Assembly: GCA_964016885.1 (NCBI GenBank)
Contig: CAXHJY010001477.1
Span: 558,001-622,000 of the forward strand
Length of the DNA stretch: 64,000 bases
Source: Eledone cirrhosa
Lineage: Eukaryota
Reading direction: 5' to 3'
This document shows, in pieces, positions 3,672 through 58,872 of the stretch (positions within the stretch are counted from its first letter, which is position 1; every line of letters begins with the position of its first letter). The position numbers and the translations under genes are program-made. The notes under the pieces are model-generated. The model searched no databases and had not been told where the DNA came from. It saw only the letters and a program-made list of their open reading frames with translations.

Positions 3672-3750
3672 CACAATCTGTTCCAAGAATTTCCCCGATG
3701 TTGTCTGCAACATGTCATCAAATTCCATGCTCATCCGTTTTGCTACCCAT
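3672..3750 (-). CDS. PDZD8: PDZD8 coding exon 3 (SMP domain): (R)WVAKRMSMEFDDMLQTTSGKFLEQIV
   Basis: Acceptor ttttatAG, donor GTAAGC, 79 nt = 1 + 26 codons, phase matches exon 2. Resembles vertebrate PDZD8 RWVTKKIKVEFEELLQTKTAGRLLEGL as recalled. Confidence 0.88.
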
Positions 3751-4196
3751 CTATAAAATTAGATAAAAAAGTAATACATTGATAAACAAGATTCATTAAA
3801 GGTACTAGCAGAAAACCACTCTTTGGGTGGTTTTCTGCTAGCACGTGTAGTGTGTATATTGATATATACGCAAGTATATATACATGTAAATATGATACAT
3901 CAAATAACATCGTAATTGACAATATACACAGAAATTGAAGAGAGACTGTGTTACACTGTCTTATGTAATCTGTAACGTAATCCATGATACATTAAAAAAA
4001 AGACGATATTATATATAAACTGCATTAGGAGAAAATTAGTGACAGAAATATATGAATGTTTATTTAAGCAATCGCTAACTGGAAGTGTTGATATTTGAAA
4101 ATGTTAAAGAAGTGAATCTTTAAATAAATAATAAAATATATTTCATCAACAGCTACGAAATTTAGTAGATAAATTATGTAATATTCATTCATTATT

Positions 4197-4312
4197 TATT
4201 CAAATCCCGCCGAGGTTAACTTTGCCTTTCATCCTTACGGGGTCGATAAAATAAAGTACCAGTAATGCACTGGGTACTTGCTGGCCTTGTGCCTAAAGTA
4301 GAAACAATTATT
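4197..4312 (+). mobile_element. tRNA-derived SINE (family A, Nin-domain-like core), 5'-truncated
   Basis: TTCAAATCCCGCCGAGGTTAACTTTGCCTTTCATCCTTACGGGGTCGATAAAATAAAGTACCAG. Homologous to 16083-16210 and 58515-58692. Confidence 0.75.
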
Positions 4313-4419
4313 TATTCAAAGTAATCCAACTTATTTTACAAACGGGATAAAAAATTATATTTTAGATGCAGTCCGGCACTCCTTTCTTTATTATAGTTTA
4401 GATTAAGTCAAAGACACAA

Positions 4420-4600
4420 CAATTTCCCATGTATCGGTACCACAATATAATGCACCCACTGGACCATGTGAGGTGTGGCACATATGTAAGAAAGACCCAC
4501 TCCAGGTAATCTGACAGGTCAGTAACTAAATACTGACATTGCGTGTGACGATTTGTCCAACCCATGCTAGCAGGGAAAACAAACATTAAATGACGCTGTT
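4420..4600 (+). mobile_element. short element with RTE-type 3' tail
   Basis: Ends CCAACCCATGCTAGCAGGGAAAACAAACATTAAATGACG, matching the RTE 3' terminus at 2401-2445. 5' boundary uncertain. Confidence 0.55.
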
Positions 4601-5096
4601 CATGACCCAGATAGCCCGAGGGGAGTGGAGTTTAGAAGGAATAATTTATAAATTACTTTTAACTGATTATGTTTAAAGTTTTTTTACTTTAATTCCCTTT
4701 CTTCGTTTTCTTTTACAAAGCTGTTTCTAACATAATTAAAGTTATTGTGACATTAAAATGTTGTACCAGACTGAGGAGGGATTTTGAGTCAGGCAATGTC
4801 TTTTCTCTCTTATTTTCATAGCCCCTAAGATTCTTTAATAATTTAGCAGAAAATATCTAAAACCATGTTTGTTAATTCAAATGTTTATAGTCTCTTTACT
4901 AGTTGACAGATTATTGTAAAAATTTGCAGTATTAGAGTAAGTACTTAGATTTTTAATTTTTATGATACACTCAGTGCTGTTTTGTACTTTACACAAACAT
5001 CTGGTAAATATGGTTTGTTGCGGTACAAAAGGTTAAAAATTAGATGAAAGAATTAATATTCTTGTTGATATTGTTGTTTTTACTGCTACTACTGTG

Positions 5097-5352
5097 AAGG
5101 CAGATGGCGTAGTGGTTAGGTTTTTTGACTCAAGATTGTAAGGACCGGAGTTTGATTCCCAATGATCCATTGTGCCCTTGAACAAAGCACGTTATTTCAT
5201 ATTGCTCCTGTCCACTCAACTTGCAAAAATGAGTCATACCCATAATTCAAATAGTCAGCTTTGTCACACAATGAGTCAAGTAAATATCTCTGAGAATTAT
5301 GTTAAGGGTACATGTGTATGTGGAATGCTCAGTCACTTGCACATTAATTTAG
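5097..5352 (+). mobile_element. tRNA-derived SINE (family B)
   Basis: TGGCGTAGTGGTTAGG A box, GAGTTTGATTCCC B box, then a body shared with 3140-3425 and 15290-15690. A short family-A fragment follows at about 5360-5418. Confidence 0.72.
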
Positions 5353-5449
5353 TAATTAATTGTTTCTACTTTGGGCACAAGGCCAGCAATTACGCAGTGT
5401 ATTACTGGTACTTTATTTAATGTTTGTTGTTTCCTTGAAAGTATGAAAC

Positions 5450-5660
5450 AATGAAAGCTTGCCTGGAATGGTCATGTATCCTGTCACAACTCCTGGACCA
5501 AAACCATCCTTCGAGGGGGAAGGAGGGAGAGACAAAGAAAATTCTGGTCCAACAACATCAAAGACTGGACTGGTCACAGCACTGAGCCCCTTCTACACAT
5601 GACAGAGACCAATGGTGACAGCTGACCACAAAGGTGTCTAGAGTGACACCCTAGCAAGTG
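5450..5660 (+). mobile_element. 3' fragment of a second RTE-like LINE family
   Basis: Translates with lesions to KLAWNGHVS..TKTILRG..GRRERQRKFWSNNIKDWTG..DQW, a typical RTE C-terminus. An inverted homologue lies at 7047-7290. Confidence 0.7.
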
Positions 5661-6566
5661 ACTGTACCAGTGGCACACAAATGACTGGCTGTACCAGTGG
5701 CACATCTAGAGTCGCACCCTAATGACTGGCTGTACCAGTGGCACCCCAATGACTGGCTGTACCAGTGCCACATCTAGAGTGGCACCCCAATGACTGGCTG
5801 TACCTGTGGCACACTAATGACTGGCTGTACCAGTGGCACATCTAGAGTCGCACCCTAATGACTGGCTGTACTAGTGGCACCCCAATGACTGGATGTACCA
5901 GTGGCACATCTAGAGTGGCACCCCAATGACTGGCTGTACCAGTGGCACATCTCGAGTGGCACCCCAATGACTGGCTGTACCAGTGGCACATCTAGAGTGG
6001 CACCCCAATGGCTGGCTGTACCAGTGGCACTCTAATGACTGGCTGTACCAGTGGCACATCTAGAGTGGGACCGCAATGGCTGGCTGTACCAGTGGCACAT
6101 CTAGAGTGGCACCCCAATGGCTGGCTGTACCAGTGGCACATCTAGAGTGGGACCGCAATGGCTGGCTGTACCAGTGGCACATCTAGAGTGGCACCCCAAT
6201 GGCTGGCTGTACCAGTGGCACATCTAGAGTGGCACCCCAATGGCTGGCTGTACCAGTGGCACATCTAGAGTGGCACCCCAATGGCTGGCTGTACCAGTGG
6301 CACATCTAGAGTCGCACCCCAATGGCTGGCTGTACCAGTGGCACATCTAGAGTCGCACCCTAATGACTGGCTGTACCAGTGGCACATCTAGAGTGGCACC
6401 CCAATGGCTGGCTGTACCAGTGGCACTCTAATGACTGGCTGTACCAGTGGCACATCTAGAGTGGCACCCCAATGGCTGGCTGTACCAGTGGCACATCTAG
6501 AGTGGCACCCCAATGACTGGCTGTACTAGTGGCACATCTAGAGTGGCACCCCAATGACTGGGTGTA
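5660..6566. repeat. 41-bp minisatellite (CCAGTGGCACATCTAGAGTGGCACCCCAATGACTGGCTGTA) with about 26-bp deletion variants
   Basis: More than 20 tandem units, contiguous with the RTE-like fragment upstream. Confidence 0.95.
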
Positions 6567-6619
6567 TCAGCTACAGAAACATAACACATGTTTTGAATAC
6601 CAGCTAAATAAGGGGACAG

Positions 6620-6885
6620 TTAGTTGTATTACTAAATGAGACTGTTGTATTACTAATGAGACAGTTGTATAACTAAATGAGACAGTTGTATTACTAAATG
6701 AGACAGTTGTATTACTAAATGAGACACATGTATTACTAAATGAGACAGTTGTATTACTAAATGAGACAGTTGTATTACTAAATGAGACAGTTGTATTACT
6801 AAATAAGACAGTTGTATTACTAAATGAGACAGTAATATTACTAAATGAGACAGTTGTATTACTAAATGAGACAGTTGTATTACTG
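6620..6885. repeat. 21-bp minisatellite (AGTTGTATTACTAAATGAGAC)
   Basis: About 12 copies. Explains the spurious NTTVSFS-repeat ORF. Confidence 0.95.
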
Positions 6886-7046
6886 AATCTCTCCAAATTC
6901 CTGGTTATTTTCAAAATGATCTGAAAACCATAGGGGACAGTGTCATTCTTTAGAAATATGGTAACAAATGGTTTAATTACAATAAAGAATTTGAAGTTGG
7001 TGGTAATATATCCCCGAATTAGTGCTAAAGAGACCTTTGACACATA

Positions 7047-7290
7047 CATCATCATCTGGTTTCCAGAACTGGTACAGCCAGTTGTTGGGGTGCCACTCTA
7101 GATGTACAACTGGTACAGTCAGTCATTAGGATGCCACGCTAGACACTTTTGCAGTCAGCTGTCACCATTGGTCTATTCCCTCTCATGTGAAGAAGTGTCC
7201 CAGCGTTGTGATCTGCCCAGTCTTTGATGTTGTTGGACCCCAATTTTCCTTGTCTACCTGTTTATTGCCCTCCTTTGACTGTGACCTTAA
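7047..7290 (-). mobile_element. 3' fragment of the second RTE-like family, with (GAT)n tail
   Basis: Reverse-complement homologue of 5510-5730. CATCATCATC at about 7047-7056 is the tail. Carries only about 2 copies of the 41-bp unit. Confidence 0.72.
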
Positions 7291-7299
7291 CCCATTACC

Positions 7300-7433
7300 G
7301 TTTATATTATTCTATATATACTATTGTATTTCCACAGTAAAGGCTTTACCTCACATAACATTTACATTACTCTATATACACTATTGTATTGTCACAGTAG
7401 AGGCTTTACCTCACATAATATCTCACATAACAT
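7300..7433. repeat. 60-72-bp AT-rich minisatellite, left part
   Basis: Two units of ACTCTATATATACTATTGTATT.TCACAGTAAAGGCTTTACCTCACATAA... The array resumes at 13050. Confidence 0.85.
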
Positions 7434-7643
7434 CTCGTATACGAGAGACGTGTGTTGACATGTGTGAACAAGCTCGGCTACCGAGTCGGATTTACTTACT
7501 CAAAAGTGAGTTTTGATTAATTTTTTTATACTGTAATATACGTTAACCCCTTGCCTTGGTCGTCAAACTTTGAGTTTATTTATTTTCGCCCCTTTTTGGG
7601 GCGAATTTTCCAGTTAAAAACTTATTACGGCAAACTAATAGAA

Positions 7644-9353
7644 ATGGACGGAATTTTCACATCTCATCCTAACGTGAAAGCCATGCCCCCTAAGAAAGGT
7701 GATACAGAGAAGCTAGAAGCACAAGGCTCTAAGTCTTCCCTCCTGACTTCTGCAAAAGAAACATGGAACACGGAATTAAAAGAAAAATTTGTAAAAATGG
7801 GTGAAAACCCAGAAAGTCACATAAACGCAGACAAAAACAGCAATAGTCACAACACCAACCAAGGAAAAAATAACGATAACACCAAACAAAGCGAACCCAC
7901 TACTGGTGCCTCCTTTGCACAGGCGGTCCGGAAAACACAAACCTGCAAGCAACTGGACATTACAACTCTGAGAGAAAAGATGAAGGAAGCGAAACAGTAT
8001 GTAACTTTCAAAGAAGGAGGAGACTTCACAATCACCTCCCCACAAGAAATCAAAAGAGACACGATGCTAAGAACGATATCTTTCAGAACAATTTCCAACA
8101 TAACAAGGAAACCAACTCAATTATCCCAAAAAGAGATTGAGCTGGTCCTAAAAAATGTGTGGAGTGATATATCGTTCATACAAAAAGGGCCACTCTATGG
8201 GAATATAACGGTCCTAATGAAGGATCAATTGATGGCCAGAAAATACTCTGTGGCGCCAATTGTTTCCAAGCTACATACATTTTTCCCCACATATTTAGGG
8301 AAAAGAACGCAGAAGATAAGGGTCTCCGGAATCCGGCCAAATGCATGCATTTCCTGGGTACTAAAAGGATTTTTAGAAGACGAGGACGGAATCCCTTCAG
8401 TAGGAGAAGTCACCACAGACGTTTTCGGCGGTTTGAGCGTGGAGGTTCTGGTCCAAATGAGACCAGAACGAATAGCTAGAATACCACAGAGGGTGTCCCT
8501 CGATGGAGAAACATTTATATATATTTCAGCCGAGGGTAGGAGGCCCATATGTTACTACTGTTCAAGCAGGGGTCATCTAAGGGCTGCTTGTCCTCAATTG
8601 ACAAAAAAAAGGCTCTTTTACCTACACCCCACACACCACCACCGCCACCACCACCACCACCACCTCCACCACCACCACCACAACAACAACAAAAACAACA
8701 CGGAAAAATAACACAAGACACGGCCCCACCCAAAACACACACAAATACAACAAAACCCCAAAATACACCACTACCCGACAGCACGGACGAGGACCCAGCG
8801 GAAACGGCACCTAGTGACGAAGAGGGGGAACCCTTCCAGCCTGTAAAAAGGAAAAAAAGAAAGCACCACTCGAACATAAACGAAACAAACACACAACCAC
8901 CAACAAAAACAAAACAAACAGAACAAACAAAATCTGCCCCACCCCAAAACATAACACATACAACAAAACGTAAGCACACACAAGAACAACAAACAAACAC
9001 AACACAAATAAAACAGTATACATACATTAACACAAATAACAAAGAACTAGTAAAAACAATACACAAAGACCCTTCGGTGGAAACTGAAGGGCAATTCTTT
9101 GCAAGCGCGGCCAACAAACCGCATTTAAAAATGATGACTCCCAATGGTCACCTATGCAAAACTAAGAGAGAACTTTCCTGAGGACGTGGGGAAAACATGT
9201 ACTCGACCCTATAACCGCGTCCTCTTGAAACGTTTCCCCACCCACACATCACCAAACACCCACACTCCACCACAGAACAACACCCCACCAAACAACCCCT
9301 CCAATACACCCATGGATATTGTGCAACCTGCTCCTCAGGAGCCGAACAGGTAG
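7644..9353 (+). pseudogene. L1/Tx1 ORF1 (nucleic-acid-binding, zinc knuckle), two apparent frameshifts
   Basis: SFAQAV motif and CYYCSSRGHLRAAC knuckle. A -1 shift at the A8 run near 8603-8610 enters a Pro/Thr/Gln-rich tail with KRKKRK. A +1 shift near 9143 follows. Ends 21 nt before ORF2. Start could be ATG 7644 or 7683. Confidence 0.8.
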
Positions 9354-9374
9354 GTCCTTCCTCTTTTAACCAAC

Positions 9375-12300
9375 ATGGCTGATATAAGAGTTGGGTGTCT
9401 GAATGTACGTGGCCTGGGACTGTCTTGGAAACAAGGCAAACTTTTAAACGATCTCAGGTCGCATAGAATGGATGTAATGGCTATTTGCGAGTCCAGGAAC
9501 AGCAGCGAGCACCAACTGGCGCCCCTCTTCGACGACTTTGAGATCTTCGCATCTCTCTGTCAACCGGGGGTTGGGGGTGGAGTTGTCGTTCTGCTGCGAA
9601 AGCACCTGGGCCTCGCCATACAGAAGGTGCACCTGGACCCGGAGGGTCGACTGGTGGTTTTAGACGTCGGCAGTAGTGAAAGTGGAGCCCTTAGACTAAT
9701 AGCTGTGTACGCCCCTTTTTGGGCAGCGCGGCCGGAATACTTCCAACGTCTGGAAACTTTTCTGGGAACGTCCCGCTCCTTGCTTTTAGTGGGGGACTGG
9801 AATGGTATCCTGGATGCACGTTGGGACTATGTAGGGGCATGTGCCAATAGAGGGGGGTGTAAAAGCCTCAAAAGGTTAATCGGCCGATTCGACCTGGCCG
9901 ATAGATATCGACTAGATTTTCCGACTGTACCACTATGGACGTGGACCAATCGCAGTGGAACATCTAGGTCGTACCTAGATAGGGTCCTAGTTAGAGAGAA
10001 GGATAGGGACACATTTAGCTGTCCAAAAATGTTCATGGTTGACTATTCGGATCACAAGTTAGTGACCTGCATAGCCAACCTTGATAGAACCCATAGACAG
10101 GGACCCGGTTACTGGAAGCTGAACTTGTCCTTACCGAGAAGCAAAGCTTACAGTAAACGGATTAGCACGTTAGTTAAGCAGAGTTTGACAGGGGCAATTG
10201 TCAACAACAGGTGGTGGAGCTCTCTTAAGAGAGCAATTAGAATAGAATCGATAGGTTTTAGTCAGGAATTAGCAAGGGATAGGAACAAGACGGAAAGGGA
10301 ATTAGTAGATAGAGTAGAAGAGGCGATTAGGAGTGGCAATGTAGCCGGCGTGCTAGCATCAAGAATGGCCTTAGACCAGTTCTTTGAGGTGAAGCATGAA
10401 GGCTGCATTGTCAGGAGTAAAATACGTGCTCTGGGTAATGAGGGAGCCAAAGCTGTGAGCTGGGCCCGAGTGACAGAGGCAAGAAGTGGGAACAAGTCCA
10501 CGATTCGGTCTTTGAAGGACCAGGATGGGCGTGTGATCCTTGAACCTGGGCAGATGTGTGCGGCCTTTCAGCGGCACTTTGCACGACTGTTCGAGAGGGG
10601 CGGCGCGCCGGGTGAGACTATGGATTTCAATCCATACCTCGACGGTCTGCCGCGCCTCCCGGACGCGGAGGCGAAGTCCTGCGAAAGGACGATTTCAGCT
10701 GCTGAGATAGGGGCGGCGCTGAGCCAATGCGGCAAACGCAAATCCCCGGGTCTCGATGGTCTACCATACGAGCTATATGTAGCGATGCCGGACTTGTTCT
10801 CCGATATCCTCGAAGCGGTCTACTGCAACTGGCAGCAGAACGGGAGAATTGCCAGTTCTGTGACCAAGGGCGTAGTTACGCTGGTAAGGAAGGATGAGAA
10901 CAAGGGGGATTACATAAGTAACTTCAGGCCCATAACTCTGCTAAATACAGAGTTAAAGATTTTGACCAAGGTGTTAGCGAAGAGGTTGGCGCTTGTCGTT
11001 GGAAACCTGGTGGGAGAAGCGCAGACATGCGCAATCCCGTCCAGGTCCATTCACGACAATCTCCACCTTATGCGATACATCATAGAGAGGGTAGGGAATG
11101 AACCCGGCTTTGGTGGGGCCCTGATCAACTTGGATCAATCTAAAGCTTTCGATAGGGTTGACCATCGTTACCTGGATGCGGTGCTCACGGCGGCAGGCTT
11201 CGGACCCGTTTTCAGGGGTTGGATTGCTGCGATGCACAGCAGCAACGTCTGCTCAAGGGTCAAGGTGAACGGCCACCTCTCGGAGCCATTCCAAATCATG
11301 CGATCCATCCGACAGGGATGCCCTCTCTCCTCCCTACTGTATGTTGCTGGCTCTTGAGCCACTACTGCGGAAGTTGGAGCGGTTGCAGGGCATCCCTTTG
11401 GAACCGGGATTGCAGAAAGCGGCGTCGGCCTACGCCGATGACGTGACAGTAATGGTGTCGATAACCTCGCAAATCGGTGAGATCGGCACCTTACTGGAGG
11501 AATATGAAAGGTTTACAGGAGCCAAGCTGAACCGTGACAAGTCCGTCGGTTTGCAACTCGGAACATGGAGAGGCAAACCGATGCCCTCCAACGACGTCGT
11601 CGGACGCTGGACGGAGGGCCCGGTGAAGCTGCTTGGGGTCTGGTTCGGACCAGACCTCCAGGTGGAGAAAAACTGGAACAAGGTAACGGCCAGGGTGTTT
11701 GCACTCGCCCAGAAGTGGGCCCAGTGCAAACTATCCCTGAAAGGTCGAGCAGAGGTGGCGAATACTTATATAGCATCCGTCATCTACTACCGCCTGACCG
11801 TCGTGCCTTGCCCAGTGAAAAGACTCGCCAAAATGGAGTGCGCGCTGTTCCAATTTCTTTGGAACAAGCGGACCCCTTTGGTGAGGAGATCCATCTGCTG
11901 TCAACACCCTTCAAAAGGAGGGCTGGGGATGCTGTGGCTACAGATGCGTAAACACGCATTAAGGCTACGGCACCTCCAGGTATTCCTCACCGGTCAACCG
12001 GTGTGGGCCCCGTTTGTGAGGCGAGCCTTTCCCAGACTCGTCTCGCTCACCGAGCTGCAATCCTGGGTCAAGCAAAGACTGAGAAAAGTGGGCGACTGGC
12101 ACATTGAATGTGCCCAGGCGCTCACGGCCCTCTGGAAAGCGGACCCGGCAATCAGTGGAGACTCCACCTCGACATTCTATAGAGGGTTGGTACGCAGCAG
12201 GTGTGACAATGCTCTCGGAGAAGTTCTAGGCATGGAGAAAGATGAACTGGCCAGTCTGTTCGGTAGGACGTTTGGCCCTGGACCGATGGACAACTTCCAA

Positions 12301-12812
12301 AAGTCCCTGGCTTAGCAGTGCTACCGAGGGGCTCTACCCGTTCGAGACAAGCTCCACAGGCATGGGAGCCTGGGTAGTGATCCTTTGAATAAGATCTGTC
12401 CGAGATGCGTGCATGACGACGAAACCGTTGCGCACGCATTCGTACACTGCCCAGACATTGCTGACCTGTGGGGCTATGTGGAACGACTACTGTCGAGGGT
12501 GGTACCAATCCGGTTGACCACCGAGTCCATTGTCACGATCAAACCGCGTCTCCTTTCAAAAACGAAGGAGAGGCGGTTTTTCTCTGTGTGATAGCCATGG
12601 CTAAAGAAGTTGTATGGTGGACGAGGCTGAAAGGGCTGAGGTCAGACACCTTTCTCTCTGGCCAACAACTGGTCCCCCTTTTCAAATACCATTTTAAAAG
12701 AAGGATCAGAATGGAGAGAGAGGTGCTCTACCCCAGCAAGTTTTATGAAAGGTGGGTGAAAGTAGGGAGAATGGCCAGAGTGAATGGGTCTTCTCTCTAT
12801 ATCAGCCTGTAG
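9375..12812 (+). pseudogene. L1/Tx1 ORF2 (APE endonuclease-reverse transcriptase-zinc finger), three lesions
   Basis: CLNVRGL, VYAP, GDWN, SYLDR, SDH (APE). KSPGLDG, FRPITLLN, DQSKAFDRV, RQGCPLS, YADD (RT). CPRC..ETVAHAFVHC finger. Frameshift near 11345, TAG at 12313-12315, frameshift near 12545. Confidence 0.92.
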
Positions 12813-13049
12813 GTGAAAGAAGAGGAAAAAGAGGAGACGAGGGAAGCACCTACTCTTTGTGCTCCTGAGGAGAAGGGTTGCACATTTTTTCCGGGGTGTG
12901 TGCGACCCATGTTAATGCCCCCTCCCTATTGAGGACTTTGTTTGTTGTTGTTATTTCATTGTTATATTTTTGTACTCGTGAATTATATGTAAACTTCGCC
13001 CCTTGTATCTGTCCCTACCTTTTGTGACCTGGTGGCAAATAAAGAAATC

Positions 13050-13320
13050 ACTCTATATATACTATTGTATTGTCACAGTAAAGGCTTTACATCACAATAT
13101 CTCACATAACATTTACATTACTCTATATATACTATTGTATTTTCACAGTAAAGGCTTTACCTCACATAATATCTCACATAACATTTACATTACTCTATAT
13201 ATATATATACTATTGTATTTTCACAGTAAAGGCTTTACCTCACATAATATCTCACATAACATTTACATTACTCTATATATACTATTGTATTTTCACAGTA
13301 AAGGCTTTACCTCACATCAT
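13050..13320. repeat. 72-bp AT-rich minisatellite, right part
   Basis: About 3.7 units with spacings 70, 72 and 78 bp. Confidence 0.88.
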
Positions 13321-13624
13321 ATCAAATCTATGATATTTTGATGTTATTTATTTTGAGAACAAATCCTTAACATCAGTATGAGTGGTCAGTTACACCCAGT
13401 TTGAACAGAAAGAAGAGAGAGAATCTGGCCAGATATGGGTGTTTAAATGCTAGTGTTAAAGATGGTTTTGGACCCATAAACAGCCTGTGAAATAACACCA
13501 ACTCAGCTGTTGAACTAAAGACATGGTAGTTAAAGAATGTGTGTATTATCTTATTTGTCTTATTTGTTTGAGGCACCACCAGTAATACTACATGCTATAT
13601 TACTGGTACTGCTAATTAATAAAT

Positions 13625-15232
13625 TAACTACTTCTTCGCTCATTTGTTCCTGAGAGATTCGTTGGGACAAAGTCCTCAAACACTCCCTCCAGCGGGTCCT
13701 ATCAGAAGCAACCATCTCCAGCTGATCCAGCTGGCTCCCCAAGCTCATGGATGTTATCCCAACCATCTTCCTCGAGGTCTACGCCTGGGTCTCCTGCTGG
13801 TTGGTTCTGCCCGTAAAATCTGTCCAGTGATTCTTACCTGAAACATTCTAACCACATGTCCATAGTATCAGAGCTGTGATCTCTCAATTCAGATAAGTAA
13901 CAGCTCTACCTGGAGTGACTCTCCAGTGATTCTTACCTGAGACATTCTAACCACATGTCCATAGTATCAGAGCTGTGATCTCTCAATTCAGATAAGTAGC
14001 AGCTCTACCTGGAGTGACTCTCCAGTGATTCTTACCTGAGACATTCTAACCACATGTCCATAGTATCAGAGCTGTGATCTCTCAATCCAAAGAAGTAACA
14101 GCTCTACCTGGAGTGACTCTCCAGTGATTCTTACCTGAGACATTCTAACCACATGTCCATAGTATCAGAGCTGTGATCTCTCAATTCAGAGAAGTAACAG
14201 CTCTACCTGGAGTGACTCTCCAGTGATTCTTACCTGAGACATTCTAACCACATGTCCATAGTATCAGAGCTGTGATCTCTCAATTCAGAGAAGTAGCAGC
14301 TCTACCTGGAGTGACTCTCTAGTGATTCTTTCCTGAGACATTCTAACCACATGTCCATAGTATCAGAGCTGTGATCTCTCAATTCAGAGAAGTAGGGGCT
14401 CTACCTGGAGTGACTCTCCAGTGATTCTTTCCTGAGACATTCTAACCACATGTCCATAGTATCAGAGCTGTGATCTCTCAATTCAGAGAAGTAGGGGCTC
14501 TACCTGGAGTGACTCTCCAGTGATTCTTTCCTGAGACATTCTAACCACATGTCCATAGTATCAGAGCTGTGATCTCTCAATTCAGAGAAGTAGGGGCTCT
14601 ACCTGGAGTGACTCTCCAGTGATTCTTTCCTGAGACATTCTAACCACATGTCCATAGTATCAGAGCTGTGATCTCTCAATTCAGAGAAGTAGGGGCTCTA
14701 CCTGGAGTGACTCTCTAGTGATTATTTCCTGAGACATTCTAACCACATGTCCATAGTATCAGAGCTGTGATCTCTCAATTCAGAGAAGTAGGGGCTCTAC
14801 CTGGAGTGACTCTCCAGTGATTCTTTCCTGAGACATTCTAACCACATGTCCATAGTATCAGAGCTGTGATCTCTCAATTCAGAGAAGTAGGGGCTCTACC
14901 TGGAGTGACTCTCCAGTGATTCTTACCTGAGACATTCTAACCACATGTCCATAGTATCAGAGCTGTGATCTCTCAATTCAGAGAAGTAACAGCTCTACCT
15001 GGAGTGACTCTCCAGTGATTCTTTCCTGAGACATTCTAACCACATGTCCATATTATCAGAGCTGTGATCTCTCAATTCAGAGAAGTAGGGGCTCTACCTG
15101 GAGTGACTCTCTAGTGATTCTTTCCTGAGACATTCTAACCACATGTCCATAGTATCAGAGCTGTGATCTCTCAATTCAGAGAAGTAGTGGCTCTCTGATC
15201 TCCGAGCTACGCACTTTATCAGGTAATGTTAA
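13625..15232 (-). mobile_element. 3' fragment of a third RTE-like LINE containing an internally amplified coding segment
   Basis: Minus strand reads TLPDKVRSSEIRE..PLLL*IERSQL*YYGHVVRMSQ...RITGQILRAEPTSRRPRRRPRGRWL...MVASDRTRWRECL. Confidence 0.8.
13823..15194. repeat. 99-bp minisatellite, about 14 near-identical copies, derived from RTE coding sequence
   Basis: Period 99 (13823 to 13922). Unit translates on the minus strand as ESLQVEPLLL*IERSQL*YYGHVVRMSQERITG. Confidence 0.95.
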
Positions 15233-15289
15233 CTATAAGGATAAATATAAAATATGTTCCAGATAATATCAATACTAGGATCTGTAAAC

Positions 15290-47800: not shown

Positions 47801-50800
47801 TGCCCAGACTTAGAAAGGGGAGTTGCCCAGACTTAGACATGGAAGTTGCCCAGACTTAGACAAGGGAGTTGCCCAGACTTAGACAAGGAAGTTACCCAGA
47901 CATCGACAAGGGAGTTGTCCAGACTTAGATAAGGGAGTTGCCCAGACTTAGACAAGAGAGTTCCCAGACTTAGACAAGGGAGTCGTCCAGACTTAGACAA
48001 GGGAGTTGCGCATACCTAGACAAGGGAGTTGCCCAGACTTAGACAAGGGAGTTGCCAAGACTTAGACAAGGGAAATCCCAGACTTAGACAAGGGAGTTGT
48101 CTAGACTTAGACAAGGGAGTTGTCCAGACTTAGAAAAGGGAGTTGCCCAGACTTAGATAAGGGAGTTGCCCAGACTTAGACAAGGGTGTTGTCCAGACTT
48201 AGACAAGGGAGTTGTCTAGACTTAGATAAGGGAGTTGCCCAGACTTAGACAAGGGAGTTCCCAGACTTAGACAAGGGAGTCGTCCAGACTTAGACAAGGG
48301 AGTTGCGCATACTTAGACAAGGGAGTTGCTCAGACTTAGACAAGGGAGTTGCCAAGACTTAGACAAGGGAGTTCCCAGACTTAGACAAGGGAGTAGTCCA
48401 GACTTAGACAAGGGAGTTGCTCAGACTTAGACAAGGCCGTTGTCCAGACTTAAACAAGTGTTGCCCAGACTTAGACAATGGTGTAACTCAGACTTAGACA
48501 AGGGTGTTGTCCATACTTAGACAAGGGTGTTGTCCAGACTTAGACAAGGGAGTTGTCCAGACTTAAACAAGTGTTGCCCAGACTTAGACAATGGTGTAAC
48601 TCAGACTTAGACAAGGGTGTTGTCCATACTTAGACAAGGGAGTTGTCCAGACTTAGACAAGGGAGTTGTCCAGACTTAGACAAGGGAGTTGTCCAGACTT
48701 ATACAAGGGAGTTGACCAGACTTATACAAGGGAGTTGCTCAGACTTAGACAAGGCCATTGTCCAGACTTAAACAAGTGTTGCCCAGACTTAGACAATGGT
48801 GTAACTCAGACTTAGACAAGGGTGTTGTCCATACTTAGACAAGGGAGTTGTCCAGACTTAGACAAGGGAGTTGTCCAGACTTAGACAAGGGAGTTGTCCA
48901 GACTTATACAAGGGAGTTGACCAGACTTATACAAGGGAGATGCTCAGACTTAGACAGGGGTGTTATCCAGACTTAGACAAGGGAGTTACCCAGACTTAGG
49001 CAAGGGTGTTGTCCAGAATTAGACAAGGGAGTAGCCCAGACTTAGACAAGGGAGTTGCCCAGACTTAGACAAGGGAGTTACCAAGAATTAGAAAAGGGAG
49101 TTGCACAGACTTACACAAGGGAGTTGCCCAGACTTAGACAAGGGAGTTACCCAGACTTAGACAAGGGAGTTACCAGACTTAGAAAGGGGAGTTGCCCAGA
49201 CTTAAACAAGGAAGTTGCCCAGACTTAGACAAGGGAGTTGCCCAGACTTAGAAAAGGGAGTTGTCCAGACTTAGACAAGGGAGTTGCTCAGACTTAGACA
49301 AGGGAGTTGCTCAGACCTAGACAAGGAAGTTACCCAGACTTCGACAAGCGAGTTGTCCAGACTTAGACAAGGGAGTTGCGCATACTTAGACAAGGGAGTT
49401 GCCCAGACTTAGACAAGGGAGTTGCCAAGACTTAGACAAGGGAGTTCCCAGACTTAGACAAGGGAGTCGTCCAGAATTAGACAAGGGTGTTGTCCAGACT
49501 TAGACAAGGGTGTTGTCCAAATTTACACAAGGGATTTACCAAGAATTAGACAAGGGAGTTGACCAGATTTAGACAAGAGAGTTGCCAGACTTAGACAAGG
49601 TAGTTGCCCAGACTTATACAAGGGAGTTATCCAGACCTAGTCAAGGGAGGTACCCAGACTTAGACAAGGGAGTTGCCCAGACTTAGATAAGGGAGTTGCC
49701 CAGACTTAGACAAGGGTGTTGTCCAGACTTAGACAAGGGAGTTGTCCAGACTTAGAAAAGGGAGTTGCCCAGACTTAGATAAGGGAGTTGCCCAGACTTA
49801 GACAAGGGAGTTGCCCAGACTTAGATAAGGGAGTTGCCCAGACTTAGACAAGGGTATTGTCCAGACTTAGACAAGGGAGTTGTCCAGACTTAGAAAAGGG
49901 AGTTGCCCAGACTTAGATAAGGGAGTTGCCCAGACTTAGACAAGGGTGTTGTCCAGACTTAGACAACGGTTTTGTCCAGACTTAGAAAAGGGAGTTGCCC
50001 AGACTTAGACAAGGGAGTTGCCCAGAGTTAGACAAGGAAGTTGCCCAGACTTAGACAAGGAAGTTGCCCAGACTCAGACAAGGGAGTTGCCCAGACTTAG
50101 AAAAGGGAGTTGTCCAGACTTAGACAAGCGAGTTGCCCAGACTTAGACAAGGGAGTTACCAAGACTTAGACAAGGGAATTGTCCAGACTTAGATAAGGGG
50201 GTTACCCAGACTTAGACAAGGGTGTTGTCCAAACTTAGCCAAGGGTGTAGTCCAAATTTAGACAAGGGATTTACCAAGAATTAGACAAGGGAGTCGCCCA
50301 GACTTAGACAAGGAATTTACCCAGACTTCGACAAGGGAGTTGTCCAGACTTAGATAAGGGAGTTGCCCAGACTTAGACAAGGGAGTTACAAGACTTAGAC
50401 AAGAAGTTACCCAGACTTAGACAAGGGAGCCGTCCAGACTTAGACAAGGGAGTTGCACATACTTAGACAAGGGAGTTGCCCAGACTTAGACAAGGGAGTT
50501 GCCAAGACTTAGACAAGGGAGTTCCCAGACTTAGACAAGGGAGTTGTCCAAATTTAGACAAGGGATTTAACAAGAATTAGACAAGGGAGTTGCCCAGACT
50601 TAGACAAGGGTGTTGTACAGACTTAGACAAGGGAGTTACCCAGACTTAGAAAAGGGAGTTACCCAGACTTAGACAAGGGAGTTGCCCAGACTTAGAAAAG
50701 GGTTTTGTCCAGATTTCGACAAGGGTGTTGTCCAGACTTAGACAAGGGTGTTGTTCAGACTTAGACAAGGGAGTTGCTCAGACTTAGACAAGGCCGTTGT

Positions 50801-53800
50801 CCAGACTTAGACAATGGTGTTGCCCAGACTTAGACAAGGGTGTTGTCCAGACTTAGACAAGGGAGTTGTCCAGACTTAGACAAGGGAGTTGTCCAGACTT
50901 AGACAAGGGAGTTGTCCAGACTTAGACAAGGGAGTTGACAAGACTTATACAAGGGAGTTGTCCAGACTTAGACAAGGGAGTTACAAGACTTAGACAAGAA
51001 GTTACCCAGACTTAGACAAGGGAGCCATCCAGACTTAGACAAGGGAGTTGCACATACTTAGACAAGGGAGTTGCCCAGACTTAGACAAGGGAGTTGCCAA
51101 GACTTAGACAAGGGAGTTCCCAGACTTAGACAAGGGAGTTGTCCAAATTTAGACAAGGGATTTAACAAGAATTAGACAAGGGAGTTGCCCAGACTTAGAC
51201 AAGGGTGTTGTACAGACTTAGACAAGGGAGTTACCCAGACTTAGACAAGGAAGTTACCCAGACATCGACAAGGGAGTTGTCCAGACTTAGATAAGGGAGT
51301 TGCCCAGACTTAGACAAGAGAGTTCCCAGACTTAGACAAGGAAGTTACCCAGATTTAGACAAGGGAGTCGTCCAGACTTAGACAAGGGAGTTGCGCATAC
51401 CTAGAAAGGGAGTTGCCCAGACTTAGACAAGGGAGTTGCCAAGACTGAGACAAGGGAGTTCCCAGTCTTAGACAAGGGAGTTGTCCAGACTTACAAAAGG
51501 GAGTTGCCCAGACTTAGATAAGGGAGTTGCCCAGACCTAGACAAGGGAGTTGCCCAGACTTAGACAAGGGTGTTGTCCAGACTTAGACAACGGTGTTGTC
51601 CAGACTTAGAAAAGGGAGTTGCCCAGACTTAGAAAGGGGAGTTGCCCAGACTTAGACATGGAAGTTGCCCAGACTTAGACAAGGGAGTTGCCCAGACTTA
51701 GACAAGGAAGTTACCCAGACATCGACAAGGGAGTTGTCCAGACTTAGATAAGGGAGTTGCCCAGACTTAGACAAGAGAGTTCCCAGACTTAGACAAGGGA
51801 GTCGTCCAGACTTAGACAAGGGAGTTGCGCATACCTAGACAAGGGAGTTGCCCAGACTTAGACAAGGGAGTTGCCAAGACTTAGACAAGGGAAATCCCAG
51901 ACTTAGACAAGGGAGTTGTCTAGACTTAGACAAGGGAGTTGTCCAGACTTAGAAAAGGGAGTTGCCCAGACTTAGATAAGGGAGTTGCCCAGACTTAGAC
52001 AAGGGTGTTGTCCAGACTTAGACAAGGGAGTTGTCTAGACTTAGATAAGGGAGTTGCCCAGACTTAGACAAGGGAGTTCCCAGACTTAGACAAGGGAGTC
52101 GTCCAGACTTAGACAAGGGAGTTGCGCATACTTAGACAAGGGAGTTGCTCAGACTTAGACAAGGGAGTTGCCAAGACTTAGACAAGGGAGTTCCCAGACT
52201 TAGACAAGGGAGTAGTCCAGACTTAGACAAGGGAGTTGCTCAGACTTAGACAAGGCCGTTGTCCAGACTTAAACAAGTGTTGCCCAGACTTAGACAATGG
52301 TGTAACTCAGACTTAGACAAGGGTGTTGTCCATACTTAGACAAGGGTGTTGTCCAGACTTAGACAAGGGAGTTGTCCAGACTTAAACAAGTGTTGCCCAG
52401 ACTTAGACAATGGTGTAACTCAGACTTAGACAAGGGTGTTGTCCATACTTAGACAAGGGAGTTGTCCAGACTTAGACAAGGGAGTTGTCCAGACTTAGAC
52501 AAGGGAGTTGTCCAGACTTATACAAGGGAGTTGACCAGACTTATACAAGGGAGTTGCTCAGACTTAGACAAGGCCATTGTCCAGACTTAAACAAGTGTTG
52601 CCCAGACTTAGACAATGGTGTAACTCAGACTTAGACAAGGGTGTTGTCCATACTTAGACAAGGGAGTTGTCCAGACTTAGACAAGGGAGTTGTCCAGACT
52701 TAGACAAGGGAGTTGTCCAGACTTATACAAGGGAGTTGACCAGACTTATACAAGGGAGATGCTCAGACTTAGACAGGGGTGTTATCCAGACTTAGACAAG
52801 GGAGTTACCCAGACTTAGGCAAGGGTGTTGTCCAGAATTAGACAAGGGAGTAGCCCAGACTTAGACAAGGGAGTTGCCCAGACTTAGACAAGGGAGTTAC
52901 CAAGAATTAGAAAAGGGAGTTGCACAGACTTACACAAGGGAGTTGCCCAGACTTAGACAAGGGAGTTACCCAGACTTAGACAAGGGAGTTACCAGACTTA
53001 GAAAGGGGAGTTGCCCAGACTTAAACAAGGAAGTTGCCCAGACTTAGACAAGGGAGTTGCCCAGACTTAGAAAAGGGAGTTGTCCAGACTTAGACAAGGG
53101 AGTTGCTCAGACTTAGACAAGGGAGTTGCTCAGACCTAGACAAGGAAGTTACCCAGACTTCGACAAGCGAGTTGTCCAGACTTAGACAAGGGAGTTGCGC
53201 ATACTTAGACAAGGGAGTTGCCCAGACTTAGACAAGGGAGTTGCCAAGACTTAGACAAGGGAGTTCCCAGACTTAGACAAGGGAGTCGTCCAGAATTAGA
53301 CAAGGGTGTTGTCCAGACTTAGACAAGGGTGTTGTCCAAATTTACACAAGGGATTTACCAAGAATTAGACAAGGGAGTTGACCAGATTTAGACAAGAGAG
53401 TTGCCAGACTTAGACAAGGTAGTTGCCCAGACTTATACAAGGGAGTTATCCAGACCTAGTCAAGGGAGGTACCCAGACTTAGACAAGGGAGTTGCCCAGA
53501 CTTAGATAAGGGAGTTGCCCAGACTTAGACAAGGGTGTTGTCCAGACTTAGACAAGGGAGTTGTCCAGACTTAGAAAAGGGAGTTGCCCAGACTTAGATA
53601 AGGGAGTTGCCCAGACTTAGACAAGGGAGTTGCCCAGACTTAGATAAGGGAGTTGCCCAGACTTAGACAAGGGTATTGTCCAGACTTAGACAAGGGAGTT
53701 GTCCAGACTTAGAAAAGGGAGTTGCCCAGACTTAGATAAGGGAGTTGCCCAGACTTAGACAAGGGTGTTGTCCAGACTTAGACAACGGTTTTGTCCAGAC

Positions 53801-56253
53801 TTAGAAAAGGGAGTTGCCCAGACTTAGACAAGGGAGTTGCCCAGAGTTAGACAAGGAAGTTGCCCAGACTTAGACAAGGAAGTTGCCCAGACTCAGACAA
53901 GGGAGTTGCCCAGACTTAGAAAAGGGAGTTGTCCAGACTTAGACAAGCGAGTTGCCCAGACTTAGACAAGGGAGTTACCAAGACTTAGACAAGGGAATTG
54001 TCCAGACTTAGATAAGGGGGTTACCCAGACTTAGACAAGGGTGTTGTCCAAACTTAGCCAAGGGTGTAGTCCAAATTTAGACAAGGGATTTACCAAGAAT
54101 TAGACAAGGGAGTCGCCCAGACTTAGACAAGGAATTTACCCAGACTTCGACAAGGGAGTTGTCCAGACTTAGATAAGGGAGTTGCCCAGACTTAGACAAG
54201 GGAGTTACAAGACTTAGACAAGAAGTTACCCAGACTTAGACAAGGGAGCCGTCCAGACTTAGACAAGGGAGTTGCACATACTTAGACAAGGGAGTTGCCC
54301 AGACTTAGACAAGGGAGTTGCCAAGACTTAGACAAGGAAGTTGCCCAGACTCAGACAAGGGAGTTGCCCAGACTTAGAAAAGGGAGTTGTCCAGACTTAG
54401 ACAAGCGAGTTGCCCAGACTTAGACAAGGGAGTTACCAAGACTTAGACAAGGGAATTGTCCAGACTTAGATAAGGGGGTTACCCAGACTTAGACAAGGGT
54501 GTTGTCCAAACTTAGCCAATGGTGTAGTCCAAATTTAGACAAGGGATTTACCAAGAATTAGACAAGGGAGTCGCCCAGACTTAGACAAGGAATTTACCCA
54601 GACTTCGACAAGGGAGTTGTCCAGACTTAGATAAGGGAGTTGCCCAGACTTAGACAAGGGAGTTACAAGACTTAGACAAGAAGTTACCCAGACTTAGACA
54701 AGGGAGCCGTCCAGACTTAGACAAGGGAGTTGCACATACTTAGACAAGGGAGTTGCCCAGACTTAGACAAGGGAGTTGCCAAGACTTAGACAAGGGAGTT
54801 CCCAGACTTAGACAAGGGAGTTGTCCAAATTTAGACAAGGGATTTAACAAGAATTAGACAAGGGAGTTGCCCAGACTTAGACAAGGGTGTTGTACAGACT
54901 TAGACAAGGGAGTTACCCAGACTTAGAAAAGGGAGTTACCCAGACTTAGACAAGGGAGTTGCCCAGACTTAGAAAAGGGTTTTGTCCAGATTTCGACAAG
55001 GGTGTTGTCCAGACTTAGACAAGGGTGTTGTTCAGACTTAGACAAGGGAGTTGCTCAGACTTAGACAAGGCCGTTGTCCAGACTTAGACAATGGTGTTGC
55101 CCAGACTTAGACAAGGGTGTTGTCCAGACTTAGACAAGGGAGTTGTCCAGACTTAGACAAGGGAGTTGTCCAGACTTAGACAAGGGAGTTGTCCAGACTT
55201 AGACAAGGGAGTTGACCAGACTTATACAAGGGAGTTGTCCAGACTTAGACAAGGGTGTTGTCCAGACTTAGAGAAGGGAGTTACCCAGACTTAGGCAAGG
55301 GTGTTGTCCAGAATTAGACAAGGGAGTTGCCCAGACTTAGACAAAGGAGTTACCCTGACTTAGACAAGGGTGTTGTCTAGACTTAGACAAGGGAGTTACC
55401 CAGACTTAGACAAGGGTGTTGTCCAGACTTAGACAAGGGTGTTGTCCAGACTTAGACAAGGGAGTTACTAAGAATTAGAAAAGGGAGTTGCGCAGACTTA
55501 CACAAGGGAGTTGCCCAGACTTAGACAAGGGAGTTACCCAGACTTAGACAAGGGAGTTACCCTGACTTAGACAAGGGAGTTACCCTGACTTAGACAAGGG
55601 AGTTACCCAGACTAAGACAAGGGAGTTGCCCAGACTTAGACAAGGGAGTTGCCCAGACTTAGACAAGGCAGTTACCCTGACTTAGACAAGGGTGTTGTCC
55701 AGACTTAGACAAGGGAGTTACCCAGACTTAGACAAGGGTGTTGTCCAGACTTAGACAAGGGTGTTGTCCAGACTTAGACAAGGGTGTTGTCCAGACTTAG
55801 GTAAGGGTGTTGTCCAGAATTAGACAAGGGAGTTGTCCAGAATTAGACAAGGGAGTTGTCCAGACTTAGACAAGGGAGTTCCCCAGACTTGGACAAGGGA
55901 GTTCCCCAGACTTGGATAAGGGAGTTTCAAGACTTAGACAATGGTGTTGCCCAGACTTAGACAAGGGAGTTGTCCAGACTTAGACAAGGGAGTTGCCAGA
56001 AGACAAGGGTGTTGTCCAGACTTAGACAAGGGTGTTGTCCAGACTTAGACAAGGGAGTTGTCTAGACTTAGACAAGGGAGTTGCCAGAAGACAAGGGTGT
56101 TGTCCAGACTTAGACAAGGGAGTTGACCAGACTTGGACAAGGGAGTTTCCCAGATTTGGATAAGGGAGTTGTCAAGACTTAGACAATAGTGTTGTCCAGA
56201 CTTAAACAAGGGAGTTGACCAGACTTAGACAAGGGAGTATAGGTGTAAATATT
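17878..56253. repeat. 38.4-kb array of a 23-bp satellite (AGACTTAGACAAGGGAGTTGCCC), roughly 1,650-1,700 monomers, single orientation, with higher-order repeats
   Basis: Period 23 seen throughout. Copy number is length/23. Diagnostic variant strings recur at about 2.45 kb, about 3.27 kb, 3,591 bp and 3,819 bp. Confidence 0.98.
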
Positions 56254-56744
56254 AAAAACACATATTTTCATATCCAAAGGTGAAGATTAATGACATGAAA
56301 AATTATAATTGTACTAAGAATTATATGTCAGATATTTAACTTTAATCCTGTACTATATGAAACCACATTAGAGATATATTCTTGAATAGTAGAAAACATC
56401 ATTAAGACAGCATCACATTAAATATTGAACTCTTTACACTATTTAATACAGCAAATTCTTATAACAATCTGTCTACTAATAATAATACTATAAACATTTT
56501 AATTATTAAACCTGTTGTTAGATATTTTCTGCTAAATCATTTAAAACAGCACTAGGACTGCATCACATTAAAAATAAGTCTCTACTTTAATAGTGTAAAT
56601 TTCACAACAATCTGTTCACTTGTAAATATATCATAAACATGATATAACAAACCCGTTTTTACATGTTTTCTGTTAAATTATTACAGGTTGTTAAGAGTTA
56701 ATTATAACAAATAGTATAGCTAAAAGAAAGAATTGTATGCTCCC

Positions 56745-57893
56745 AGCCCACACTGTAGAGTGGTCAAGTAGGTGTCACAACAAAAAGTACCCAGTCCACA
56801 CTCTAAAGTGGTCAAGTAGGTGTCACAACAAAAAGTACCCAGTCCACACTGTAGAGTGGTCATGTAGGCAGTGCTTCAATTTGAGCAGTGCATAGCAACC
56901 AGCCCTGATTGTAAGGTGTTCTGGAAGTATGTTCCCTCAAAGCAGAGGCCTCACTCTCCAGTAGGTCCTCTTCACAATCCCCACACAAGCCAGGTTACTG
57001 ACGACCCCAAGGAATGCACAGAGCTCATTGCTGAATGCTATGCAGGCATTTTCACTATTGAAGATCAGAGTGTAGTCTCCACCACCTATGGCACTGGACT
57101 CTATTACAAGCATGGAATTTACACCTGCAATGCTGCGACATCACCTGAAAAATAAACACAACCATGCCTCCCCTGGTCTTGATGGTGTTACGTACCTGCT
57201 TCTTAAACGTGGTGGGTACTTCCTTCTGCACCAGCTATCACGCTTCTTCCAATTCTGTCTGAACAATGGTGCTACTCCAGAACAGTGGAAAACTGCCAGT
57301 GTCATTCCTCTGTTCAAAAAGGGTGACCGTACATCACCTGTGAACTATCGTCCAGTCAGTCTTACTAGTTGCATCGCCAAACTGATGGAATCCTGTGTCA
57401 CAGAAACACTTTGGAACTTCTGGAAATCTCACAGTCTTATCCGGCCCTCGCAATTTAGATTTATCCCTAACTCCAGCTGCTGTGATCAACTTTAAAACCT
57501 CCATGCTTCCCGAGATTCGCTAACACTACACCTAATGTTCCCCCTCCATACACATACATACATGTATATCATGAATCATACACTATTCACTTCCCTGACA
57601 TTTGTATATTATTTTATGTACTATACATGCACTTTTGACGAGTTGTAGTGCACCTGAGCACTTTACACAATAATTTCATTATAAAGAAAGCATTATTATT
57701 ATTATTATTATTAAGGTGTCACAACAAAAAGCACTGAGTACTCACTGAAAATGGGGTTGGTGTTAGGAAGGGCTTCAAACCAAAATCAGTTCTGTGTGAG
57801 CAAGACATGGTCACCTGACCTAGCATTGTCCACAACAGGATAACTCATTTAGTATGGAAAAATGGACGTAAAACAATGATGATGATGATAATG
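56745..57893 (+). mobile_element. RTE-family 3' UTR fragment split by a nested CR1-like insertion
   Basis: About 48-bp unit GTAGGTGTCACAACAAAAAGTACCCAGTCCACACTGTAGAGTGGTCA repeated at 56745-56868. Resumes AGGTGTCACAAC at 57714 and ends GGACGTAAAACAATGATGATGAT. Homologous to 2210-2457. Confidence 0.75.
56869..57713 (+). mobile_element. CR1/L2-group LINE fragment, 5'-truncated and internally deleted, (ATT)n tail
   Basis: KVFWKYV..., SPGLDG, QWKTASVIPLFKKGDRTSPVNYRPVSLTSCIAKLMES, QFRF..SCCDQL, then abrupt non-coding 3' region and (ATT)n at about 57692-57713. Confidence 0.8.
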
Positions 57894-57939
57894 TAAGATA
57901 TGAAATAAACAACTGATAAATTAAAAAAAAAAAAACTAG

Positions 57940-58201
57940 TACAATGTGGTAGAAACACAAAGGGAAAAGGATGACAAATAAAACAAAACAAAGTAATGTT
58001 TCACCCAGTATATTTCAACATATTTCAAGGTTAAAACCCTCTTTCCAATTGTGAAACAAAAACAGTTCAAAACAAAAACGAACGATCGATGTGTTCTTCC
58101 TTAACTGGTATTAACCCTGAAATATGTTGAAATATACTGGATAAAACAACTTTGTTTTATTAGTCATCCTTTACCCTTTATGTATTTCTACTGCATTGTA
58201 C
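57940..58201. repeat. long inverted repeat (about 92-bp arms, about 76-bp spacer), foldback/MITE-like
   Basis: 57940-58034 (GTACAATGTGGTAGAAA...CCAGTATATTTCAACATATTTCAAGGTTAA) is the near reverse complement of 58111-58201. Confidence 0.85.
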
Positions 58202-58270
58202 CGGCTTTTTTGAAATATTTACCAGTCCTAACAAATAGATTCTGTATAGAAGAACCAAATAAAAGAATAC

Positions 58271-58389
58271 CTTCGAACTTCTCTCGTGTCTCTCAATTCT
58301 TTAAAAAGGAACTGGAATATCAAATTCAAGAATCGGCAACTTTCTTTTTCAAATTTACCATTAGTATCACCAGACATTTTAAACAATTC
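58271..58389 (-). CDS. PDZD8: PDZD8 coding exon 2: ELFKMSGDTNGKFEKESCRFLNLIFQFLFKELRDTREVR(R)
   Basis: Acceptor tttgcAG, donor GTATTC, 119 nt = 39 codons + 2. Resembles PDZD8 SMP start RETCYFLNATILFLFRELRDT as recalled. Confidence 0.9.
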
Positions 58390-58514
58390 CTGCAAATAAA
58401 AACATATTTTTTGATTTACTCGGATGGATACATAGATACATGGATACAGGAATGTATGTATATTGTAAAGGCTGACACTCTACCAATACTGTCAATCTAA
58501 CACTATGTCCATAC

Positions 58515-58692
58515 TTTTGGCACAAAGCCAGCAATTAGCCCAGTGCATCACTGGTACTTTATTTTATTGACCCCATAAGGATGAAAGGCAAAGTTAACCT
58601 CGGTGGGATTTGAACTCAGAACGTAAAGGGCCATCACTCTATGCTGCAAAGCATGGTGTCTGACGCTCTACCGATACTGCCAATCCACTGCT
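58515..58692 (-). mobile_element. SINE family A with tRNA-like head, in PDZD8 coding intron 1
   Basis: Minus strand TGGCAGTATCGG (A box) ... GAGTTCAAATCCC (B box), then the core shared with 4197-4312. Confidence 0.78.
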
Positions 58693-58725
58693 ATATGATA
58701 ATAATAAAAAAAATGTTATTTTTAC

Positions 58726-58872
58726 CTCTGGACACTGAAATTTTCCAAATTGTGGTTTCTTTGGAATTGGTTCCTCTGGCAGGCTGGAAAGCCATCTTCG
58801 AATCCATATGTATTGTATAATGAGAGTTAGTAACATACCAGCTATGGTCGATACTAAAATAATGGCAATCAT
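58726..58872 (-). CDS. PDZD8: PDZD8 first coding exon (N-terminal TM anchor): MIAIILVSTIAGMLLTLIIQYIWIRR...FQCPE
   Basis: ATG, hydrophobic helix resembling PDZD8 ILASAVLGSFLTLLAQF, 147 nt = 49 codons, donor GTAAAA, in phase with exon 2. Confidence 0.88.

Follow-up and report, generated by a model that had tools for sequence, protein, structure and literature searches.

Two groups of Drosophila genes come closest to the locus described here: the Y-loop genes, defined by megabase introns of simple satellite and by a sex-limited chromosome (PMC6508621), and heterochromatic or autosomal giant genes such as Pzl, Myo81F and Mitf (PMC11207136, PMC8616060). The satellites derived from short interspersed elements (SINEs) in squamates (PMC10702118) and the coleoid Z chromosome, enriched in long interspersed elements (LINEs; PMC10925132), are two further points of comparison. 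For scale, mean lengths in Octopus bimaculoides are 5.2–6.0 kb for introns and 24.7 kb for genes (PMC10925132, Table S2), and the O. vulgaris genome contains 7.45 per cent simple repeats and 3.12 per cent satellites (PMC13282606). Here we describe the PDZD8 gene of the octopod Eledone cirrhosa (genome size 3.0 Gb), starting from a window of 64,000 nucleotides of assembly GCA_964016885.1 (contig CAXHJY010001477.1, called C1504 below; the window is C1504:558001-622000).

Most likely, this intact, single-copy gene is conserved and otherwise ordinary, and was inflated passively in a satellite-rich arm of the probable Z chromosome. We base this reading on several introns that carry their own tandem arrays, on the array-rich chromosome C28 and on the intact reading frame.

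The PDZD8 gene and its introns

C1504 was examined end to end (842,314 bp, no N). Its minus strand carries exons 1–22, colinear with the protein, across 476 kb; exon 23 is found on chromosome C28 (11,898,370-11,897,111), 15 kb from a 200-N gap (C28:11913304-11913503). The full model has 23 exons and 1,405 residues, with GT-AG ends in 22 of 22 introns, no internal stop and one terminal stop; the acceptor of exon 18 scores poorly. The model is identical to the Argonauta protein at 1,088 of 1,339 aligned residues. By genome search, exons 3 and 23 are each single copy. Because PDZD8 is split between C1504 and C28, the unplaced 842-kb contig likely fills the C28 gap. The inferred span, which joins the two records, is at least 633,065 bp and holds 4,218 nt of coding sequence (0.67% coding).

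The first exons, which lie in the window, are as follows (window positions unless stated).

58872-58726, minus strand: coding exon 1, 147 nt, beginning with ATG and encoding 49 residues with a hydrophobic N-terminus
58390..58725, minus strand: intron 1, 336 bp, including a short dispersed repeat (about 58470-58715) that occurs many times in the genome
58389-58271, minus strand: coding exon 2, 119 nt, in which the SMP-like region begins; ends in phase 2
3751..58270, minus strand: intron 2, 54,520 bp
3750-3672, minus strand: coding exon 3, 79 nt
1..3671, minus strand: 5' part of intron 3 (13,561 bp overall), with a reverse-transcriptase element and 38-bp arrays
C1504:548110-548027, minus strand: exon 4, outside the window

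Exons 1–3 have AG/GT ends and phases 0, then 2+1, and give a single open peptide of 115 residues. They align in order to residues 1-49, 49-90 and 89-116 of Argonauta PDZD8, with 82, 88 and 96% identity; chance is ruled out for the exon chain because three pieces match in order. The frame of exon 2 gave the one match among five candidates, an Argonauta hians PDZD8-like protein (90% identity), and the peptide across the exon 2/3 junction is identical in the Argonauta, O. bimaculoides and O. vulgaris proteins. With the Argonauta protein as query, 46 relatives were obtained, the majority named PDZD8. Pfam recognized 0 families in exons 1–3 alone, these pieces being too short, and domain scans were made on the orthologues. 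MMM1 (PF10296) lies at residues 63-168 of the O. vulgaris orthologue, above the cut-off, and at residues 64-168 of the Argonauta orthologue, slightly below it. Profile scans of orthologues also found PDZ and C2 domains, and an orthologue matches the C1 domain and the PDZD8 coiled-coil chain of the solved structure 7F6J (E-value 5e-10); the PDZ, C2, C1 and coiled-coil regions are all present in the joined model. The latter is 43% identical to a bird PDZD8 across residues 64-400 and, judged by eye, starts with a hydrophobic stretch of 25 residues. On sequence comparison, the gene is the octopod PDZD8 orthologue.

The original prediction, made from the sequence of the window alone, is supported in part by these data. 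It had proposed three minus-strand GT-AG exons with matching phases and a continuous peptide of 115 residues, which we find base by base; introns of 336 bp and 54,520 bp, which the coordinates reproduce directly; a 70% satellite share in intron 2 (70.4%, from the array at 17878-56238); and the identity with PDZD8, to which the best-matching proteins belong. It also placed intron 2 within the SMP domain, and the intron indeed interrupts the SMP-like region, at codon 89 (MMM1 64-168 in the orthologue). The gene had been called hidden, which holds for this window only: PDZD8 is annotated in three other octopods.

The orthologues in these species are GAB1604563.1 (Argonauta hians), CAI9734708.1 (Octopus vulgaris), and XP_014775737.2 and XP_052829643.1 (O. 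bimaculoides). Over the aligned parts they are 81-96% identical to the Eledone protein, with the same junction peptide and the same domain order. Near residue 730 of our model, the protein model of O. bimaculoides carries about eight additional residues at the junction of exons 17 and 18, suggesting a micro-exon; no micro-exon for them was found in intron 17. In contrast to the joined 23-exon model, the O. bimaculoides and O. sinensis PDZD8 models are fragments, covering exons 1-7, 10-23 and 10-21 in the former and 5-9 and 13-21 in the latter. Since the fragments break at introns 9 and 12, these introns apparently trouble other assemblies too, and the large introns described here explain the fragmentary models as well as indicating the likely place of the unplaced 842-kb contig. 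Exons 13–21 extend over 145.6 kb here, whereas in O. sinensis a contig of 52.7 kb holds them all, a difference that suggests lineage-specific expansion.

Half of the introns (11 of 22) are shorter than 4 kb. The largest are the following (tandem-repeat share as a fraction).

Intron 9: 179,820 bp; tandem share 0.90; the largest assembled
Intron 22: at least 155,370 bp, inferred across the two records and containing the gap; tandem share 0.45 (C1504 part)
Intron 12: 57,128 bp; tandem share 0.99
Intron 15: 56,623 bp; tandem share 0.24
Intron 2: 54,520 bp; tandem share 0.76
Intron 17: 33,858 bp; tandem share 0.94
Intron 14: 23,448 bp; tandem share 0.54

Intron 2 therefore ranks fifth, three larger introns lying on C1504 and the fourth, intron 22, presumably running across the two records. 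Nested genes were considered for the large introns and rejected: the long open reading frames in low-copy DNA resemble pieces of mobile elements (by eye only).

Tandem arrays in and around the gene

Tandem repeats make up 73% of C1504 and dispersed repeats another 20%, or 93% in all. The units of the large arrays within the gene are of 23, 47, 38, 89, 26-28, 49 and 9 bp, and those upstream of it are of 54 and 65 bp. Among the 17 arrays of C1504 that were compared, there are three related pairs. Exact 37-mers of the 47-bp array have 376 matches in the genome, all 376 in its own intron (intron 9), and a 37-mer from the 23-bp array has 16 exact matches, all 16 inside intron 2; this test of privacy would miss diverged relatives elsewhere. 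Three units (48, 89 and 99 bp) have matches among dispersed repeats. The 89-bp unit, for instance, is 80-82% identical to dispersed retroelement copies and reads as part of their open reading frame. Independent local amplification, of the sort seen in SINE-derived satellites (PMC10702118), would account for the pattern. The 56-kb array at C1504:295994-352420 has a unit of 88-90 bp that is a piece of a retroelement open reading frame; an 89-bp array at C28:13.6 Mb is of related origin and is similar to the 99-bp array of the window.

Arrays of 130 kb (54-bp unit) and 76 kb (65-bp unit) are located upstream of the start codon, within C1504:624187-842244. As these are equally large, arrays are not tied to introns. 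They begin about 7 kb from the start codon, leaving a short stretch for the promoter and the 5' untranslated region (UTR).

Intron 2 consists of 76% tandem repeat and 17% dispersed repeat; about 3.5 kb matches nothing among the DNA compared. Its contents are listed below (window positions; arrays without strand).

17878..56238: 23-bp tandem array, 38.4 kb, 1,672 copies, 84% matches
45103..54337: near-identical blocks in the 23-bp array at 3,819-bp spacing, with exact repeats of 2,983 and 2,018 bp
7301..13323, plus strand: young LINE with endonuclease, reverse transcriptase and 72-bp terminal repeats, in antisense orientation relative to PDZD8
13823..15194: 99-bp tandem array, the unit matching dispersed repeat copies
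5637..6888: small tandem arrays with units of 27/41/68 bp and of 21 bp

All 1,604 anchored units of the 23-bp array have the same orientation, with about two mismatches per unit. The blocks spaced by 3,819 bp are either a recent block duplication or an assembler effect. The LINE, which we take to be L1/Tx1-like, belongs to a family of which C1504 has about ten copies, 95-99% identical; its 72-bp terminal repeat has grown to arrays of 1.6-2.6 kb in several copies and is present on autosomes too. An inverted segmental duplication on C1504 was rejected, the matches being LINE copies and repeat families.

The 47-bp array of intron 9 (C1504:357016-472303) is private, measures 115 kb and comes to within 548 bp of exon 10. 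Of its 2,301 full-length units, 86% retain, when read on the sense strand, a run of pyrimidines and then AG/GT, giving about 2,000 decoy acceptor-like sites for the spliceosome to pass; the 23-bp array has almost none on its sense strand. AATAAA is absent from both strands of the 23-bp array and from the arrays outside the gene. A strand bias against this motif as a mark of selection on a transcribed array was accordingly discarded.

C28 as the likely Z chromosome

C28 is 136.5 Mb long, yet it is listed after a 22-Mb chromosome in an order by size. SMARCB1 and DDOST, which belong to the conserved Z genes of cephalopods (PMC10925132, Table S6), both lie near 99 Mb on C28, and the introns between their matched exons are shorter than 9 kb. 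A third marker, the SPAG9 family, has no match anywhere in the genome, so that two of three markers are on C28. Given the location of these conserved genes, C28 is likely the Z chromosome. PDZD8 is then likely Z-linked, exon 23 alone lying on C28 itself; the gene is not named in the available part of the supplement to the Z paper (PMC10925132). The records bearing PDZD8 in O. bimaculoides and O. vulgaris are of 57.5 and 58.8 Mb and would, from their size, be the Z; the Z axis in the text of Fig. S8 extends to 55 Mb (PMC10925132). The chromosomes C1-C4 of Eledone, at 379-443 Mb each, are far above the longest O. bimaculoides scaffold reported (203 Mb).

The satellite load was estimated from evenly spaced 800-bp samples, which were counted as in-array when at least 90% tandem repeat; samples from the small unplaced contigs C29 and C30 (n=2) were excluded from the chromosome comparison. 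On C28, 20 of 42 samples are in arrays, versus 10 of 55 on autosomes (4/23 on large, 0/5 on middle and 6/27 on small ones), with a Fisher p = 0.0036 that is optimistic because the samples are spatially correlated, three families recurring in neighbouring C28 samples. With boundaries set after inspection of the data, the in-array samples of C28 are clustered: 10/11 at 0-31 Mb, 1/19 at 34-92 Mb and 9/12 at 95-133 Mb. Two other observations concern these samples. A 16-bp satellite resembling a telomere-like repeat is common to autosome C18 and distal C28 (129-133 Mb), and a GC-rich 317-bp tandem array at C28:125.8 Mb is unlike the other sampled units.

We tentatively suggest that the Z has more than doubled (136.5 Mb versus about 58 Mb in Octopus) through dozens of private arrays that fill both arms and have invaded the introns of conserved genes, bringing PDZD8 to more than 630 kb. 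If so, this would be a W- or Y-style accumulation of satellites on the gene-rich Z of a ZZ/Z0 system, and housekeeping genes that are single-copy in females would need hours to be transcribed.

Origin of the large introns and comparison with known systems

We consider it probable that the introns grew passively and that RNA polymerase II (Pol II) reads through the arrays, while the introns are removed co-transcriptionally and their RNA decays; the transcription steps are predicted from sequence. A short piece of an intron or of a retroelement would be duplicated in tandem, slippage and unequal exchange would enlarge the array to tens of kilobases, and kilobase block duplications would follow later. 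Selection would retain the exons and splice sites and would be too weak here to restrain intron length, as one would predict under low recombination; a Z recombines only in ZZ males. We accept the earlier point that a full-length mRNA is predicted to need Pol II read-through of the 23-bp array; the polymerase would traverse each array in turn, and each intron would be spliced during transcription and then degraded, the satellite RNA being a by-product. Pol II proceeds at 1-4 kb/min, so the 633-kb transcript would take about 3-10 hours.

Besides the correlation between samples, several observations weigh against passive inflation on a satellite-rich Z. No source was found, among the DNA compared, for the 23-bp unit of intron 2 or for the 47-, 54-, 14- and 65-bp units. 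The ends of C1504 have no overlap with either side of the C28 gap, its placement resting on the split gene. A first matched comparison of C28 with autosomes (8/20 vs 3/20, p = 0.16) was not significant, small autosomes are also high in mean tandem share (0.43 vs 0.57), and tandem repeat makes up just 11% of the 80 kb of C28 that surround exon 23. The O. sinensis contig may be collapsed. Finally, introns 9 and 12, the two most array-rich here, are where the gene models are interrupted in two Octopus species, and this could mean that large introns are conserved, hence selection.

An assembly effect, in which a real gene would have arrays assembled too long or too short, or segments wrongly joined across one of them, seems unlikely to us. 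The unplaced status of C1504, the division of PDZD8 over two records, and a 23-bp array that has exact internal repeats as long as 2,983 bp and, at 38 kb, exceeds a usual accurate long read, are what such an effect would lead one to expect. However, 22 exons are colinear, co-oriented and phase-matched across all arrays, an order that a misjoin would rarely restore, the 842 kb of C1504 are free of N, and about two mismatches per 23-bp unit provide landmarks for the assembler. Equally improbable is a gene adapted to heterochromatin, whose expression would depend on a repeat-rich HP1/H3K9me (histone H3 lysine 9 methylation) setting, with the arrays mattering collectively and not by sequence. Such heterochromatic genes have been described (PMC8616060), C1504 is almost entirely tandem or dispersed repeat and the PDZD8 models of relatives likewise break, but in the assembly of O. 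sinensis exons 13–21 occupy far less space.

A Y-loop-like programme, with satellite introns acting as a timer or scaffold, dedicated RNA-binding proteins and a functional strand-specific RNA, is more doubtful still. PDZD8 shares with Y-loop genes a very low coding share and a likely position on a sex chromosome, the sense strand of its 23-bp array is without AATAAA, and in Y-loop genes too the size has been kept while the satellite sequence changed (PMC11207136). Against this, the largest assembled intron is of 180 kb and not megabases, the units are of 23-89 bp and not simple, the Z occurs in both sexes, AATAAA is also missing from the antisense strand and outside the gene, and genes with 50-100-kb introns were not attenuated when splicing was disturbed (PMC11207136). 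Recursive splicing, in which the 47-bp array of intron 9 would give splice points for the stepwise removal of this longest intron, is very improbable: its AG/GT motif scores like the acceptors of the gene (9.1 vs a lower quartile of 6.9, with a matrix built from 22 sites only) but is not above chance, since 1.7% of shuffled units have it and, with 12 intronic arrays examined, one match is expected about one time in five, while an upstream array outside the gene carries an acceptor-like motif too, at lower density, and the motif is conserved no better than the remainder of the unit.

Like the SINE-derived satellites of squamates (PMC10702118), some arrays here (48-, 89- and 99-bp units) were born from pieces of interspersed repeats, unlike the 23-bp unit, which lacks a source among the DNA compared. 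With the LINE-rich coleoid Z (PMC10925132), C28 shares conserved Z genes, and young LINEs are frequent on C1504. In contrast to that account of LINE enrichment, tandem arrays fill about half of the C28 samples, and C28 has 136.5 Mb versus 57.5 and 58.8 Mb for the PDZD8-bearing records of two Octopus species. PDZD8 and satellite-filled introns are already known; the part that would be new is the satellite-rich, enlarged octopod Z. No account of such a Z, or of private arrays in octopus introns, was found in the literature available to us, though subscription journals and bioRxiv supplements may hold one; the word 'satellite' has no match in the available main text of the cephalopod papers (PMC10925132, PMC13282606, 10.1101/2024.12.09.627507, PMC13122204, PMC6962438). 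The finding suggests that satellites, and not only LINEs, can enlarge an ancient cephalopod Z, and it bears on the evolution of sex chromosomes and on dosage compensation. The gene also provides a natural test of Pol II and the spliceosome against 40-115-kb arrays of differing sequence in one transcript, and every array could be targeted by a probe of its own.

The original prediction had presented intron 2 as exceptional and likened it to Y-loop introns. This is not supported: four introns are larger, arrays dominate C1504 and the first 31 Mb of C28, and the array is a 23-bp locus-private repeat, not a megabase simple satellite. Intron 2 is unremarkable beside its neighbours, and it is the wider array pattern that matters. 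With kl-3 and kl-5 (PMC6508621), PDZD8 has in common satellite introns, a likely sex chromosome and a predicted span over two records that is more than 99% non-coding (UTRs not counted). It lacks two defining features of Y-loop genes: its introns are 10-fold or more shorter, with complex private units, and its chromosome, likely the Z, occurs in males and females alike. The gene itself is not known to be restricted to the testis. With Pzl, Myo81F and Mitf (PMC11207136, PMC8616060), it shares exons scattered among repeat-filled introns, assembly gaps and a repeat-dominated region, introns and surroundings alike, as the composition of C1504 illustrates. Unlike these genes, most of its large introns have their own private array of 23-89-bp units, on a likely Z. 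By this comparison, PDZD8 of E. cirrhosa is most likely closer to the heterochromatic genes of Drosophila than to the Y-loops.

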